Origin: Acidobacteriota bacterium
GTDB taxonomy: Bacteria > Acidobacteriota > UBA6911
NCBI GenBank assembly: GCA_963664705.1
Contig: OY761556.1
Span: forward strand, 5,984,001-6,048,000
Reading direction: 5' to 3'
Length of the DNA stretch: 64,000 nt
Part shown: in pieces, positions 30,645-41,107 of the stretch
How the letters are laid out: the number at the start of each line of letters is the position of its first letter
Position numbering within the stretch: position 1 is the first letter of the stretch
Position numbers and translations under genes: made by a program
The notes under the pieces: generated by a model
What the model saw: only the letters and a program-made list of their open reading frames with translations
Told to the model about the DNA's origin: nothing
Database searches by the model: none

Positions 30645-32483
30645 ATGTCTATCCCGAGTTGTTATGCGGGTAAAATCCTGCTTGTCAATTTAACTGATGG
30701 AAAGCTGAGTGAAGAGGTCCCCGACGAGAGGATCTACCGGGAGTTTGTCGGAGGCAATGGGTTGGGGGTCCGGATCCTTTATGAAAGGATAAAGCCGGGG
30801 ACTGACGCATTGGGTCCCGATAACATTCTGGGATTCGTTGCCGGCAGCTTGACGGGAACAAAGGCACCGGGGAGCGGTCGGCATATGCTGGTCACAAAAT
30901 CTCCTCTCACCGGAACCTGGGCCGAGTCCAATTCCGGAGGAACGTTCGGTCCGGAACTGAAGACTGCCGGCTATGACGCCGTGTTGTTTTATGGCATTTC
31001 TCCGCGTCCCGTGTACCTGCTGATTCGGGATGGCAAAGCCGAATTGAAGGATGCTTCTCATCTTTGGGGACGGGATGCCTACGAAACGCAGGATCTTCTG
31101 CTGCAGGCATTCAACGATCCGAGAATGAAAATTTCGTGCATTGGCCCGGCGGGGGAAGCCGTTTCGCTGCTGGCCGGCGTTGTCAGCGAACGGGGCAGGA
31201 TGGCCGCACGGAATGGCGTGGGTGCCGTGATGGGTTCCAAAAGACTGAAGGCCGTTGCCGTCTCCGGCGGGTATCATGAGATCGTGCCGGCAAACCCGCA
31301 GAAGTTCAATGTCGCCTTTGGACAATTCCTTGCCATCATTCAAAACAACGAGTATGCAAAGGAACTTGCTGCTTCCGGGACCGGCAGCAATATCAGTTTT
31401 CTGGTCTCGATCGGAGATGTCCCGCTAAAGAACTGGCAATTGAGTGGCCTGGACGCCCTCCCCTCCGTCACCAACCTGGATGGCGGCAATATGAACAAAT
31501 ACAAGGTGGGCAATTTCGGATGCTATGCCTGCCCGATCAGTTGTGGCGGCATTATCCGTCAGGAGGCGGGGCCATTTGCCATAAAAGACCAGATGCACCG
31601 GCCGGAGCAGCAAACGCTGGCAGCCTTGGGCGGCATGTTGATGAACGACAATCTCGAGGCGGTCATTAAGGCAAATGATATATGCAATCGATACGGCATC
31701 GACACGATGGGAGTTGGCGGCTGCATTGCGATGGCGATGGAGTGCTACGAACGGGGTCTGATCAGCCGAGAAGAGACTGACGGCATCGACTTGACCTGGG
31801 GAAATGCCGAGGCCATTGTCGCGATGGTGGAGAAGATAGCCAAACGCGAGGGGTTTGGCGCCGTCCTGGCGGACGGATCGGGAAAGGCTGCAGAGAGGAT
31901 CGGAAGAGGATCCGAAAAATATGCCGTGGCTATTCGTGGCAAGAGCCTGGCCTTCCATGATCCGCGCATGTCCCCATCTCTGGGGACTGCCAATATTGCC
32001 GATGCCAATCCCGCCCATCACATGGATAGTCAGATTACCGGGATGATCACGGAAGGGGCCGCGATCGGCTCCGATCCGGCATTGCAGGCTTCCAAGGACA
32101 ATCCGTTCAGGGCCTATGTGATAGGCAGTGCCTATCACCAGTTGTTGAATGCGGCCGGATTGTGCTCCCTCTATACGGTTGCGACCTCCCCGCCTCCTAT
32201 CGCCGAACTGATTGAAGGGGCCTGTGGCTGGGATTTTGGGTGGGAAGCGGCCATGACCGCGGGCCGTCGAATTCTAACGCTGAGGCAGGCTTTCAATGCC
32301 CGGGAGGGATTGACTCCAGACCAGTTTGAGTTGCCTAAACGTATTGCCTCCACCGCCAGAGTGAATTTTTCCGGTTTGAGAGACGGGTATTTTCAGGAGA
32401 TGGGGTGGGACCTCAAATCGGGCAAACCTTCAAAACAGTCGCTCAATGAACTGGGCTTGTCCCAATTGACCTCGGATCTATAA
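30645..32483 (+). CDS. Tungsten-containing aldehyde:ferredoxin oxidoreductase (AOR/WOR family)
   Basis: GKILLVNL, KSPLTG, SNSGG, IGPAGE, GAVMGSKRLKAV, CYACPISC plus GLC 4Fe-4S ligands, GIDT, FNAREG. Confidence 0.92.
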   Translation: MSIPSCYAGKILLVNLTDGKLSEEVPDERIYREFVGGNGLGVRILYERIKPGTDALGPDNILGFVAGSLTGTKAPGSGRHMLVTKSPLTGTWAESNSGGTFGPELKTAGYDAVLFYGISPRPVYLLIRDGKAELKDASHLWGRDAYETQDLLLQAFNDPRMKISCIGPAGEAVSLLAGVVSERGRMAARNGVGAVMGSKRLKAVAVSGGYHEIVPANPQKFNVAFGQFLAIIQNNEYAKELAASGTGSNISFLVSIGDVPLKNWQLSGLDALPSVTNLDGGNMNKYKVGNFGCYACPISCGGIIRQEAGPFAIKDQMHRPEQQTLAALGGMLMNDNLEAVIKANDICNRYGIDTMGVGGCIAMAMECYERGLISREETDGIDLTWGNAEAIVAMVEKIAKREGFGAVLADGSGKAAERIGRGSEKYAVAIRGKSLAFHDPRMSPSLGTANIADANPAHHMDSQITGMITEGAAIGSDPALQASKDNPFRAYVIGSAYHQLLNAAGLCSLYTVATSPPPIAELIEGACGWDFGWEAAMTAGRRILTLRQAFNAREGLTPDQFELPKRIASTARVNFSGLRDGYFQEMGWDLKSGKPSKQSLNELGLSQLTSDL

Positions 32484-32566: not shown

Positions 32567-34291
32567 TTATCTCCACTTATCCACAGAAGCGCTGGAAAGA
32601 TAGCCGAAATCGGCAGCCTGCCAGAAAAGATTCGTCCCGCCTCCGACCGAAAGGATATGGATGTTGGTCGGACGTGCAATCAGCGGAATCTTTTCCGTGC
32701 GCGGAAGCTTCATCCACGATGCAAAGGGCTCGGCCCCCTGTCTGGCTGTGGGCAGAATGAAGTTTTGCACGCTGTAGTAATTATCCAGCCATTCGCCCAC
32801 TGTCGTTGTGGTGTTCTTGAAAACGTAATCGATCAACTGCTCCTTGGAATTGAATCCTTCTCTTTCCTTGAGCTGCTTGATGATGGTTGGATCCAGCAGC
32901 AGAGTTGCCGGAGAGAATGGGCTGATGAATTTCAGCCAGAACGGAATCTGTTCGGCAAAGGGCTTTCCAAAGCTTTGGTCCGGATGCGTTATTCCCCATC
33001 CGCCAAAAGTACTGACAACGCTTTCCTGCTTTTTAAAACCCTTCTGCACGTGATACGGGTTCCAACCTTCCGGAAGCTCCTCTTCATTTTCAGGCATGCA
33101 CAGGTTGTTATACATGAGGTTGTTGCCCTGGCTGCCCATGTATACCTGGCCGGGATGCGCCCCACCGTCGAGGTTAATAGACATTAGAGTCCAGGCTCTT
33201 CCAATGACGGAATTTGCCTGATTGAACGGACCGAGCGCGCCAATGCCGGCGTTCATCTTTATTTCGTTGCGGATTGGGCCGTTGACCACCACCATTCTGG
33301 CGAACGAGGTGGTGGAGGTGAACACGGACGGGACGCCGGTGGATGCCAAGGCCAGAATGACCGGGAAATGCTCCGGCTTTGCCCCGGCCATTACCGCGTT
33401 GACCGCAACCTGTTCGACGTTGTAGCTCCAGGCAGGGTGAGGCGAAGAAGCCTGCATTTTCCCTACCAGTTCGTCCGGCTTATGGCTTGTCCCCTTCAGC
33501 ATTTCAGCGACTCGAGCTTCGGTCGGCAGCACAATAGGAAGCCCGTCTGTCCATTCATTGTCAAGGAAGAGGCGGGTCAGGTTTTCGGGTGTATCAGGCT
33601 TGACCAGTCTGGGCGTGGGTTGCTCGATGAATCCCTTCTTACTGTCTTCCTCGCTCAGGGGTGTAATCAGGGCCGCGACGATTTCCTGCAAGACGGGTTT
33701 GCCCGTTACAGGGTCGTTCCCCTGCAGGTATTTCCGGCAGGTCTCTGCCGGTACTCCCGTAATCGGGTGCGGAACAAAAGTGAAGCGCTGATTAGGCATA
33801 CCGCGTTTGAAAGTGTAATTTTTAACAAGATCCTGGAAAACTCTTGTAACAACCGGGGCGGTAGGAACTCCAAGTTTTTCGAGTGTCAAACAATGGCCGA
33901 CGACCGACGGCGAGCATGAACTTCAATGCCCGACCCCCATGATGGTTCCGGCGCCCGCTGCCTTTATTTCGGCCCATAACTTTTGATCGTCATCAAAGTA
34001 TGTGCCCGCCTTGGTCCGCACAACGAAATTTGCTTTGGGATATTTTTCGCTAAGCAGCTTCTGCATTTCTGTAAAAAACTGGTGCGTGTCGGTGAATCCG
34101 ATATCGACGATGTAGATAGTTTTCCCGTCGAGGGAGGTAAACCGTGGGGCCATCGGGACTCTCGCGATTGGCGGCGGCTGTCCCATGGGATTCAACACGG
34201 TGATCTTGGGCTCCTGCGCCTGCAGAATCCCGAAGAACGCCGGGACGAAAAAGATGACTGCAAGGTATAAAGCAACCGTTTTCTTTCTCAA
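32567..34291 (-). CDS. Secreted UGSC-family selenoprotein (U-x-x-C); in-frame TGA at 33923-33925 read as Sec; about 574 aa
   Basis: ORFs 33923-34369 and 32567-33889 share a frame and are joined by 11 sense codons: ...MGVGH-TGA-SSCSPSVVGHCLTLEKLGVPTAPVVT. TTG start at 34291 follows AAGGAG and begins a signal peptide. SECIS-like hairpin follows the TGA. Confidence 0.85.
33893..33917 (-). other. Candidate bacterial SECIS element
   Basis: After UGA: aguuc AUG cuc GCCG u C ggUC G u CGGC CAU. The apical loop begins with GG 17 nt after the UGA. Confidence 0.6.
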
Positions 34292-34523
34292 CGTATTTCT
34301 CCTTACCATGAATCGGGCGGTGTTATGCCAGGGGGATACGTGCTTGCCGCAGCCGGCGGATCGCCACAAACCGATTCGGTTTTGCTGGCGATTCGATGCG
34401 GTTTTCCCCGTTCCCGTTTTTCTACTCTATCACCGGAAGACGCCGAATCAGGAACTTTTCTTGGATTCGCGTCGTATCACTACGATAGAATTTCAGGACG
34501 AAACCTTTGCCGGGGAGAGGAAA

Positions 34524-37463: not shown

Positions 37464-38003
37464 CTAACAGCGGGAAGCGATCCAGCCGCTGCCGCACAGA
37501 GTAAAGCACTCTCCGCAGGCCCGGCATGAAAGCTCGGCGCCTTCGACAAGGGCCGGTTTCCGTTCGACGCCGCGTCCCTTGAAATAAATTTTGTTCTGCT
37601 TTTTGACGTCAGAGCAATACCGCAGACAAAGTCCGCAGAGACTGCAGTCGGTCATACCGGTTTTGAACCTTGATGAAGTAACGCCGTATTCCTCTGCATA
37701 CAACTGCCACGACGGCCAGAGAAGCTCGATGATCATTTTACGGATCTTTCTCACTTTTTCCGTACTGGTCTGGACCTTCAATCCCTCTTCCGCAGGATAG
37801 ACGCAGGATGCGACCAGTCTCTTCCGTCCCCACTTGGTTTCAATCTCAACCACGCACATGCGACATCCGCCGTAGTCTTCCAGCCTGTCGTCATGGCATA
37901 AGGTTGGAATCTTGATTCCCATCGATCTTGCTACCTGCAGGACGGTTTGACCTTCTTCTGCCTGAACTGCACGGCCATCGATTTCCAGATTTACTTTTTC
38001 CAT
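37464..38003 (-). CDS. HoxU/NuoG-N-terminus-like Fe-S subunit (2Fe-2S plus two 4Fe-4S)
   Basis: IPTLCH..GGCRMCVVE..ASC, then CSLCGLC..C and CRACGEC..C; GAGG RBS. Confidence 0.88.
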   Translation of the reverse strand: MEKVNLEIDGRAVQAEEGQTVLQVARSMGIKIPTLCHDDRLEDYGGCRMCVVEIETKWGRKRLVASCVYPAEEGLKVQTSTEKVRKIRKMIIELLWPSWQLYAEEYGVTSSRFKTGMTDCSLCGLCLRYCSDVKKQNKIYFKGRGVERKPALVEGAELSCRACGECFTLCGSGWIASRC

Positions 38004-38013
38004 GGTGACCTCA

Positions 38014-39921
38014 CTACTTTGATGCGGGCGCTGCCGCTGGTTGTTGCTGCATTGAGTTTGCCGGCACTTTGATGACGGCCCTGCATTTTTCAGGACAGGC
38101 CGAGAAGCACGCGCCGCACTTGATGCACTTGGCCTGAATGACCGTGTAGACTTTGTCTTCCGATTTGTTGATGGCTGCCACCGGGCAATTGCGCAGGCAG
38201 GCTCCGCATTTCGAGCATTTTTCCTGATCGATGTCATAGGCAATCAGGGAGGCACAGACGCCCGCCGGGCAACGTTTTTGCCGGATGTGCTCGAGGTATT
38301 CCTCGCGGAAATACTTCAGCGTGCTGGCGACCGGGAACGGCGCGGATTGACCCAGGGCGCAGAGAGACGCGGCTTCCATGAACTCCGAGAGCTCTTCCAG
38401 GAGCTGCAAGTCCCCTTCCTCTCCCTGTCCGGAAGTGATCCGGTTCAGGATATTCAGCATCTGACGCGTACCCTCCCGGCAAGGGACGCATTTCCCGCAC
38501 GATTCATGGGCAAGGAAGTTGATGTAGTAGCGGGCGGTATCCACCATACAGGTGTCTTCGTCCATGACGATCATTCCGCCCGAACCCATCATCGAGCCGA
38601 CCTTGGTGAGCTCGTCGAAATCGACCGGCAGATCGAGAAGCGATTCGGGAATAACTCCACCGGAGGGACCACCGGTCTGCACCGCTTTGAATTTCTTCCC
38701 CTTCGGGATGCCGCCGCCGATCTTGAAGATGATATCGCGGAGCGAAATGCCCATCGGGACTTCGACCAGCCCGGTATTTCGCACTTTGCCGACCAAGGAA
38801 AAAATCTTGGTGCCCTTGCTTCCCTCGGTCCCCATTCCGCGGAACCATTCCGAGCCGTGATTAATGATGTGCGGAACATTGGCCCAGGTTTCCACATTAT
38901 TCAGACAGGATGGTTTTCCCCAGAGTCCCTTTTCCGATGTGTGGATGTATTTCGGACGAGGTTCCCCGACCTTGCCTTCGATGGCACTCATCAGAGCGCT
39001 CGATTCGCCGGAAACGAAGGCGCCCGCTCCGCGGTGAATTATCACATCAAAAGAAAATCCGGATCCGAGGATGTTCTTGCCCAGCAGTCCATATTCCCGG
39101 GCCTGGTCAAGCGCCATCTGCGCATGTTTGCGGGCAAGCGGGTATTCCTGGCGAACGTAGATGAACCCTTCGGAAGCTCCAATGGCATAGGCGCCGAGAA
39201 TGAGACCCTCAAGAACTCCGTGCGGGTTTCCTTCGAGCAGGCTGCGATCCATGTAGGCGCCCGGATCGCCTTCGTCCGCATTGACGATGACATACTTCGG
39301 TTCACCGTGGGCCTTCTTTGTGGTTTCCCACTTCCGACCGGCCGGGAATCCGCCACCACCGCGCCCACGCAGGTTGGCAGCCTTCACTTCGTTCAACACC
39401 GCTTCGGGCGTCATTCCGGATAGCGCTTTGGCTAAGGCCGAATATCCGCCGACTGCAATGTAATCGAGAATATTGGAGGCATCGATCTTCACGTTATTCT
39501 CGAGAAGCACGCGCTTCTGGTATTTGTAAAACGGAATTTCCTCCAGGTGAGTCAGGCGTTTTCCGCTGTCTTCATCAAGATACAGAAGCTTGTCAACGGA
39601 GCCGTTGCTGCCGGCCAGCTTGTCGACAATAGCGGGAATGTTTTTTTCCTGAGTGCCAACGTAGCAGACATCGGACGGCTGAATGACAACCAGGGGGCCG
39701 CGTTCACAGAAGCCGTGGCATCCCGTTCGGCGAACGCCTACTTTGTCGGAAAGGCCTCGTTGCCCAATTTCCTTTTCGAGCGATTCTGCAAGGGCTTCCG
39801 CTCCATAGGCCCGGCAGCCAGTGCCGGCGCAGACCGCCAGCCAGGTTTCCTTCGCGTTGCGCTTGGCGAGAATCTGATCTTTAAGTTTTGAAAGATCCGC
39901 AGGGGTTTCTATGCGAGACAT
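38014..39921 (-). CDS. NuoF/HydB-like FMN- and NADH-binding subunit with N-terminal 2Fe-2S and C-terminal 2x4Fe-4S domains
   Basis: CAGTGC..GCHGFC, LRGRGGGGFP, NADEGDPGAYMDR, NNVETW, GGPSGG, ESCGKCVPCREG, two ferredoxin motifs. Confidence 0.93.
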   Translation of the reverse strand: MSRIETPADLSKLKDQILAKRNAKETWLAVCAGTGCRAYGAEALAESLEKEIGQRGLSDKVGVRRTGCHGFCERGPLVVIQPSDVCYVGTQEKNIPAIVDKLAGSNGSVDKLLYLDEDSGKRLTHLEEIPFYKYQKRVLLENNVKIDASNILDYIAVGGYSALAKALSGMTPEAVLNEVKAANLRGRGGGGFPAGRKWETTKKAHGEPKYVIVNADEGDPGAYMDRSLLEGNPHGVLEGLILGAYAIGASEGFIYVRQEYPLARKHAQMALDQAREYGLLGKNILGSGFSFDVIIHRGAGAFVSGESSALMSAIEGKVGEPRPKYIHTSEKGLWGKPSCLNNVETWANVPHIINHGSEWFRGMGTEGSKGTKIFSLVGKVRNTGLVEVPMGISLRDIIFKIGGGIPKGKKFKAVQTGGPSGGVIPESLLDLPVDFDELTKVGSMMGSGGMIVMDEDTCMVDTARYYINFLAHESCGKCVPCREGTRQMLNILNRITSGQGEEGDLQLLEELSEFMEAASLCALGQSAPFPVASTLKYFREEYLEHIRQKRCPAGVCASLIAYDIDQEKCSKCGACLRNCPVAAINKSEDKVYTVIQAKCIKCGACFSACPEKCRAVIKVPANSMQQQPAAAPASK

Positions 39922-40982
39922 GCTTGCGCCTCCTCTTTCTGTAGTGTCTTGATGATTTTCTCGAGCTTGCTCCGTGAGGGATCTCGGTGATACTGCGAGT
40001 CGATCTGAACCACGGGAGCCAGGGCGCAGCAACCAATGCAATGGACTGTCTCGAGTGTGAATTCCTGTTTACTGTCAGTTTGACCGGCCTCGATTCCGAG
40101 CAGAGCGGAAATCCTGGTCAGCACTTCGGAGGCTCCGCGCACGTGGCAGGCCGTTCCAGTGCAGACCTGGACCGTATGCCGGCCGCGTGGTTCAAGGCTG
40201 AACGCCTCATAGAAGTTTGCCACGATATAAATCTCGCGAAGCGGAATGTTCAGCCGGCCGGAAATCCAGCTCAGAATGTGTCTCGGAAGCCAACGGAAGG
40301 TTTCCTGTACATCCAGGAGCACCTGAATCAGAGCATTCTTCTGGAAATCATATTTGCGCATGATTTCGTCGACTTTCAGCAGCTCCTCCCTGATATCCAG
40401 GATCGCCCGTTCCTTCTTTTTGATCTGGCCCAGGCTTTCCGCGTGGTACTTGGCCTCGCTTTCCAGGTAGGTGAGTTCATCGAGGAGTTGCCGTTTTTCA
40501 AGGCCAAGGGAGTATGCTTCCCCGAGAACATCCAGTCCCTGCAACAGCAGGTCGTATTTGTCGGACGGATGCGGCTGCGCGGGAGCCTGCATTTTTTTCG
40601 CTTCCCGGCGCAGGTTGCTGAGCCCAAGCGCCCGGCGCACGGTTTCAAGCAGCTTTTCCGCTTCAAACGGTTTGGTCAGGAAATCAAAAGCTCCCAGCTT
40701 CATGGATTCCACTGCGGAATCAACGGTCGCATTTCCAGTGACAACGACCGGGACCGCGGCCGGATCAATCCTGATGATTTCCGATATTGCTTCGAGCCCC
40801 GTCATCCCCTGCATTTTCAGGTCGAGGAGCACAACCCCCGGATGGGAGGACGCTACGGCTTGAATGCCTTGCTGTGCGTTTTTGGCGACAGAGGTACGGT
40901 AGCCGCCGGCTTCCAGTATCCGGCTGCACGTCTCCAGAAAATTTTCCTCGTCGTCAATAATAAGTACATCTATTGGGCGCAT
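39909..40982 (-). CDS. Response-regulator receiver domain fused to a NuoE/HydC-like 2Fe-2S subunit
   Basis: REC: IIDDE, LLDLKM, VTG, LTKPF. Helical linker. NuoE: LIQVLLDVQE, VANFY..F, CTGTACHVRG, CIGCCALAP. Confidence 0.9.
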   Translation of the reverse strand: MRPIDVLIIDDEENFLETCSRILEAGGYRTSVAKNAQQGIQAVASSHPGVVLLDLKMQGMTGLEAISEIIRIDPAAVPVVVTGNATVDSAVESMKLGAFDFLTKPFEAEKLLETVRRALGLSNLRREAKKMQAPAQPHPSDKYDLLLQGLDVLGEAYSLGLEKRQLLDELTYLESEAKYHAESLGQIKKKERAILDIREELLKVDEIMRKYDFQKNALIQVLLDVQETFRWLPRHILSWISGRLNIPLREIYIVANFYEAFSLEPRGRHTVQVCTGTACHVRGASEVLTRISALLGIEAGQTDSKQEFTLETVHCIGCCALAPVVQIDSQYHRDPSRSKLEKIIKTLQKEEAQACLA

Positions 40983-41107
40983 CGACGCCCCCTGAGTGGC
41001 TTCCATAGGCAACCTCTTGATAGCTGTTTGATTGCTTTTTTTGGCAGATAGCTTCCATCATCCAGGATACAACCGGATAGACATCACACTTTGCCGCAAA
41101 TGTGCTG

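Follow-up and report, generated by a model that had tools for sequence, protein, structure and literature searches.

UGSC proteins rank high in abundance among environmental selenoproteins, with 255 sequences in the Global Ocean Sampling (GOS) data (PMC2398784). Both the family and a fusion of its domain to a second one, named Unknown_1, are in print with no function given in the parts of the papers available to us (PMC1976440, PMC2398784); statements below on articles cited by PMC number refer likewise to such parts. We analyzed a 64,000-nt stretch of an Acidobacteriota genome (assembly GCA_963664705.1, contig OY761556.1, positions 5,984,001 to 6,048,000; hereafter the window), which contains on its minus strand, at 32567..34291, a gene for a predicted exported UGSC/Unknown_1 fusion selenoprotein. 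An earlier note on this DNA had described it as two open reading frames (ORFs) joined through an in-frame UGA. The gene is one of 35 paralogues in its genome, which is more surprising than the gene itself and was not visible to the author of that note. Taken singly, the gene belongs as a variant to a family already described but functionally dark; what deserves attention is the expansion of predicted exported forms across the genus, together with a proposed mechanism like that of GrdB and PrdB, the selenoproteins with which its selenocysteine (Sec) segment aligns.

With the UGSC family (PF24696; NF041046) the window protein shares a domain lying across the TGA, a U-x-x-C motif followed by E-x-x-G-x-P, and homologues with Cys. 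The stand-alone form comprises about 175-195 aa, whereas the window protein is a 574-aa fusion with a predicted signal peptide and the motif U-S-S-C; a single copy is present in the Olavius data set (PMC1976440), in contrast to 35 in the genome studied here. The domain order is that of the UGSC/Unknown_1 fusion published in 2008 (PMC2398784, Fig. S1A). The fusion to a conserved domain of about 350 aa that the earlier note had pointed out is supported, though already in print. The Unknown_1 block of that figure (AVNGVMAGC...NG) matches residues 296-338 by eye. Its conserved Cys is replaced by Ala304 in the window protein (87 Ala and 38 Cys among 129 aligned representatives), and the thioredoxin-like fold guessed at in PMC2398784 does not appear to be the one in our model. 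Export or expansion of the fusion is not mentioned in the available parts of PMC2398784, and the word stem 'selen' does not occur in those of bioRxiv 10.1101/2021.04.09.439258. The open literature searched yielded no export, expansion or GrdB link of UGSC proteins, although supplements may hold such counts; nor did we see there the genus-wide expansion, the alignment of the Sec segment with GrdB/PrdB, or Unknown_1-redoxin fusions abutting UGSC genes elsewhere. The features of the gene are as follows.

32567..34291, minus strand: whole gene of the predicted exported UGSC/Unknown_1 fusion selenoprotein, a 574-codon read-through frame with TTG start and TAA stop
34299..34304, minus strand: Shine-Dalgarno-like AAGGAG, 7 nt upstream of TTG 34291
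34217..34291, minus strand: predicted Sec-pathway signal peptide, residues 1-25 (sequence heuristic)
33731..34198, minus strand: UGSC domain (residues 32-187; Pfam PF24696), for which a parallel alpha/beta fold of flavodoxin/receiver-like type is predicted
33923..33925, minus strand: in-frame TGA, predicted selenocysteine U123 of U-x-x-C
33914-33916, minus strand: Cys126 of U-x-x-C
33896..33911, minus strand: candidate for a SECIS-like hairpin with a GGUC loop, at +12 to +27 counted from the TGA
32570..33616, minus strand: C-terminal Unknown_1 domain, residues 226-574, confidently modelled

TGA 33923-33925 is the single internal stop of this frame, within GVGH*SSCSPSVVGHCL, and reading through it gives a product of 574 residues with U123 in H-U-S-S-C. 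The ORF list splits the gene into 33923..34369 (148 aa) and 32567..33889 (440 aa, TTG start), which is the behaviour of a table-11 caller. As had been noticed before, AAGGAG precedes the upstream start while the 17 nt before TTG 33889 hold no Shine-Dalgarno-like word, and the segments LEKLGVPT, DGLPIVLPT, VAVNAVMAG, IGRAW and GSQGN are all found in the translated frame. Over residues 32-187, with the TGA inside, the match to PF24696 reaches 99.6 bits (gathering score 25), as against 32.4 and 47.3 bits for the two halves alone. The UGSC-type domain proposed in the earlier note is thus recovered, although NCBIfam NF041046 gives 77.2 bits (E 1.3e-21), below its equivalog cut-off of 125. A single frame, a domain that spans the TGA and the conservation of this codon also agree with the view that both ORFs form one gene. 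Contigs from two runs of one sample cover the gene and show 0 differences; this is possibly the source sample, so that they are not independent.

In every one of 26 loci taken from other GTDB genomes the corresponding codon is TGA, never TAA or TAG; these loci were found with patterns taken from the window protein, so close relatives are favoured, and three of them are frameshifted elsewhere. Identities are 76-81% in Acidobacteriota and 43-49% in other phyla, and six orthologues are alike on both sides of the codon (77-85% over residues 26-122, 76-86% over residues 226-574). Cys homologues, about which the earlier note had asked, exist as well: among 150 representative homologues 39 span the site free of stops, 11 of these with C-x-x-C, and a 560-aa Cys form from Pseudonocardia bears the NCBI name 'UGSC family (seleno)protein'. 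Such full-length Cys homologues could be expressed without recoding. At four-fold degenerate sites, silent-site identity reaches 0.93-0.97 in windows starting at codons 124-130 vs 0.43 gene-wide (17 orthologous genes), and the top 8 of 282 windows all begin at codons 123-130. This constraint shows an RNA-level signal after the TGA, for which the hairpin is a candidate structure. Most paralogues show hairpins too, which are modestly stabilised, with a mean z of -0.77 (n=31) vs -0.22 for 279 control windows.

The genome under study (G000; 6.9 Mb in a single contig, C1, scored 6% contaminated) encodes the machinery that the earlier note had proposed to look for. It carries two copies each of selA, selB and selD above curated cut-offs, one selD having its own TGA, and two tRNA-Sec (selC) genes of 70.6 bits each (Rfam cut-off 47); one selA-selB-selD-selC set is clustered at C1:3072-3078 kb. 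We discarded as spurious a 72-nt 'tRNA-SeC' that ARAGORN called at C1:1625651, its acceptor stem being broken. C1:2597966-2598055 holds an unusual tRNA-like element of 90 nt whose variable arm is long. We consider it very probable, judging from the sequence comparisons, that the UGA is decoded as selenocysteine by SelB and tRNA-Sec with the help of the hairpin directly downstream. Several results weigh against this interpretation. The hairpin candidate of the window copy, at z +0.3, is no more stable than synonymous shuffles. Covariation, scored on an alignment of 39 distinct rows, gives a borderline result (11 and 28 of 500 shuffles), with slide -3 pairing nearly as well. The other 28 of the 39 stop-free representatives have varied residues and no C-x-x-C, and four of the 35 paralogues have lost Sec; taken together, these indicate that some members work, if at all, without it.

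The TGA might instead be a genuine stop, leaving two proteins or a pseudogene, or be an error, or be decoded as Trp or Cys. In favour of this, databases contain such pieces: the 120 top-ranking homologues listed are all C-terminal parts of 386-446 aa. The same list bears out the prediction that standard annotation splits such genes. Split gene pairs with D before U exist elsewhere, and three tRNA-Cys genes are present (C1:3954650, 4447567, 5002532). A true stop, however, would truncate the UGSC domain right in the active site and leave the downstream part with a TTG that lacks a Shine-Dalgarno sequence, and neither the 26 loci nor the 31 TGA-containing paralogues ever show TAA or TAG instead. 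As to other decodings, TGA still terminates ordinary genes, 7 of the paralogues among them, both real UCA tRNAs match the Rfam tRNA-Sec, and all three tRNA-Cys have GCA anticodons. We regard this whole set of alternatives as highly improbable.

A genome-wide Sec scan recovered just 21 of 31 known cases along with many off-frame artefacts, and no selenoproteome total was drawn from it. Other Sec candidates lie at C1:4399622, 4666877, 3078482, 6757229, 4261972 and 2046792. Judged by their motifs, these would comprise two rhodanese-like proteins, a methyltransferase-like one beside the sel cluster, a U-A-C protein adjoining a UGSC paralogue, a thioredoxin-like U-P-Y-C protein and SelD.

All 35 paralogues are full-length; in 31 of them a single in-frame TGA occurs at the equivalent position, always within U-x-x-C and in 7 cases literally U-G-S-C. 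Their median pairwise identity is 33%, and a quick tree joins the window copy to six orthologues from Acidobacteriota (100); the paralogues fall into several deep clades and include a few recent duplicates. The expansion extends over the genus: 24 of 24 same-genus genomes drawn contain 9-45 PF24696 matches, which are not exact copy numbers and come from kin that are not independent, and in 16 genomes from other families of the class we found none in 14 and a single match in each of the other two. selA was detected in 22 of these 24, the two genomes lacking a hit being 71-76% complete. Doubled Sec machinery was rejected as the cause of the expansion: four of the 24 have two selA, and the genome with 45 matches has one. 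With 31 genes of about 1.7 kb in 6.9 Mb, some 0.8% of the genome is systematically split by annotation. In contrast to the only Acidobacteriota genome in PMC12013277, for which 3 selenoproteins are listed, the lineage studied here is selenium-hungry. A divergent pair of Sec-less paralogues stands beside two DHDPS-like genes and a DUF6282 gene at L078:6380-10176; a similar cluster in another genome of the genus (L141) adds a stand-alone UGSC, a stand-alone Unknown_1, a Pyr_redox_2 gene and CoA-transferases.

The signal peptide described in the earlier note is supported by a sequence heuristic, the N-end of the window protein showing a basic start, a hydrophobic core (hydropathy 2.96) and an LQA end. 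This region is poorly conserved, with 16-44% identity in five orthologues vs 70-86% for the mature part. By the same kind of heuristic, signal-like N-ends are present in 28 of 35 paralogues and one further N-end is Tat-like. It is likely, as far as the N-terminal sequence can tell, that this peptide sends the protein to the periplasm.

We compared the Sec segment with GrdB/PrdB. hhalign gives 94.2% and a pairwise E of 1.1e-7, with Sec on Sec; masking of Cys leaves 87%, and reversed plus five shuffled controls reach at most 0.5%. The spacing U-x-x-C...E-x-x-G-x-P is common to both. Grd and Prd are cytoplasmic or membrane-associated, whereas the window protein is predicted to be exported, and it contains no U-x-x-C-x-x-C. 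The likeness has to be set against the following: its E-value is that of one pairwise comparison over just 67 columns; Pfam GRDB (PF07355), a model that ends before Sec, has no match in the window protein (E up to 1) and 0 candidates in the genome; and Unknown_1 did not match the one truncated GrdE-like sequence with which it was compared (0.8%). PrdB/GrdB-like genes are common in Acidobacteriota (37 of 151 genomes sampled), many with U-P-x-C (L103-L132).

The predicted structure of the whole protein is one model (pLDDT 94.6, pTM 0.92). The best matches of residues 52-216 in a wide VIA search are flavodoxin/receiver-like; no thioredoxin fold is among the 50 matches listed, which does not exclude one. 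Unknown_1 matches no Pfam or NCBIfam family, and a PDB sequence search gave nothing significant (best E 1 for the protein, 0.06 for the full alignment, 0.16 for the C-domain alignment). At E <= 0.001 Foldseek found no match for the full model in PDB and BFVD or for the C-domain in PDB; the best hit of the C-domain, class I fumarate hydratase (E 0.03, probability 0.13, TM ~0.2), was rejected. Among 13 loci of other Acidobacteriota genomes, UGSC and Unknown_1 occur together, fused or in adjacent genes, in 12, and six carry an N-terminal AhpC-TSA/redoxin domain on Unknown_1 (69 of 114 ORFs scanned). In L141 and L064 a Pyr_redox_2 gene, by our own label of thioredoxin-reductase size, abuts the UGSC gene. 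The genome encodes one DsbD.

Next to the selenoprotein gene lies one further feature of the window.

30645..32483, plus strand: aldehyde:ferredoxin oxidoreductase (AOR)-family gene by profile match, convergent neighbour, separate from the selenoprotein gene

In 14 orthologue loci scanned an AOR gene is convergently downstream in 6, and in 3 a class III aminotransferase gene separates the two (85 of 99 ORFs scanned, with a simple ORF caller). Within 5 kb of a paralogue we found 7 of 23 AOR genes (rotation null 1.45), 10 of 44 TonB receptors (2.8), 5 of 22 XDH-family genes (1.4), 4 of 16 carboxylesterases (0.95) and 4 of 12 MFS transporters (0.73). The controls are not enriched (SDR 2 of 22, null 1.26; histidine kinases 5 of 66, null 4.1).

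We tentatively propose that the window protein is a periplasmic, Sec-nucleophile, thiol-recycled reductase of a small organic molecule, a reading by analogy with GrdB/PrdB that we hold to be the most likely one, though at somewhat less than even odds. The chemical steps are drawn from those enzymes (PMC13188914, PMC9908766), from the redoxin fusions and from the neighbourhoods. U123 would attack a small-molecule substrate held with the Unknown_1 domain, Cys126 would resolve the adduct to leave a Se-S bond, and a thioredoxin-like partner, fed in the periplasm by DsbD, would re-reduce the pair. Thiol recycling is suggested because of the redoxin-Unknown_1 fusions, the abutting Pyr_redox_2 genes and the DsbD gene; in glycine reductase, reduction is thiol-driven by thioredoxin (PMC13188914). 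The paralogues would differ in the substrate that they accept, each working for its own catabolic locus in the company of TonB receptors, esterases and W/Mo aldehyde oxidoreductases. Some observations tell against this proposal. The neighbour enrichments are inflated because the families were chosen after being seen beside paralogues, and the 13 Acidobacteriota loci were selected through a match to either UGSC or Unknown_1. The AOR gene of the window is convergent and not co-transcribed with the selenoprotein gene, and cytoplasmic neighbours are unexpected for a periplasmic enzyme.

The same exported selenoprotein might instead be a general thiol-disulfide or peroxide oxidoreductase of the envelope with an antioxidant, protein-repair or folding role. 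Its U-x-x-C sits at a helix start in the predicted model, an arrangement typical of redox selenoproteins, and the redoxin fusions, the Pyr_redox_2 or CMD neighbours of homologues and the presence of DsbD would suit such a role too. PMC2398784 had suggested a redox role for the fusion, and the redox enzyme of the earlier note likewise stays a proposal. However, 35 paralogues so diverged and scattered between genes of uptake and catabolism are better explained by substrate diversification than by a housekeeping role, distant homologues show higher conservation in the second domain, of 350 aa, than in the Sec domain, and the top structural matches are flavodoxin/receiver-like; we think this general role less likely. 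Lower still we place a non-catalytic or accessory function, in which U-x-x-C is a binding site for a metal or cluster, the protein helps W/Mo oxidoreductases by maturing or reactivating them or by passing on electrons, or it acts as a ligand sensor. Returning to the small-molecule reductase, a bolder and rather doubtful extension is that catabolism in the genus is built round a 10-45-member family of periplasmic selenoenzymes, distant relatives of GrdB/PrdB. They would form a third class of Sec-nucleophile reductases, with a Sec domain, an Unknown_1 substrate domain of possibly new fold and a thioredoxin-type reductant, and would reduce or cleave diverse small molecules outside the cytoplasm. 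If true, one family would rival the largest whole selenoproteomes on record (39, 46, 57 and 63 genes; PMC9312934, PMC12013277, PMC13188914) and yet be invisible to standard annotation. The locus offers handles on UGSC function, namely a predicted exported form and 35 diverged paralogues whose varied catabolic neighbourhoods hint at substrates, and the GrdB/PrdB link suggests a chemistry.

Several catabolic families are expanded together in the genome, with about 23 AOR-family, 22 XDH-family and 44 TonB-receptor-like loci. A protein of about 190-205 aa, mostly with a signal-like N-end and with no Pfam hit at E 1e-8, abuts a UGSC paralogue in 8 of 9 copies, usually directly downstream on the same strand (e.g., L083:7897-8508, L094:8013-8627, L092:7807-8418); it is a candidate UGSC partner, absent from the window locus. 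A predicted exported family starting with C-D-R-x-C, again with no Pfam hit at E 1e-8, has about 27 copies, 6 of them within 5 kb of a UGSC paralogue (null 1.6; e.g., L071:8529-9515, L073:1986-2876, L093:8957-9937). Upstream of the selenoprotein gene, window positions 37464-41012 hold a NuoEFG-like flavin/Fe-S gene set with an SDR and a methyltransferase gene, and similar genes are also upstream in several orthologue loci. A gene for YqeC (Pfam PF19842), a marker of selenium-dependent molybdenum hydroxylases, is found at L074:2754-3524, with a paralogue some 2 kb away and the second selD at a distance of about 15 kb.
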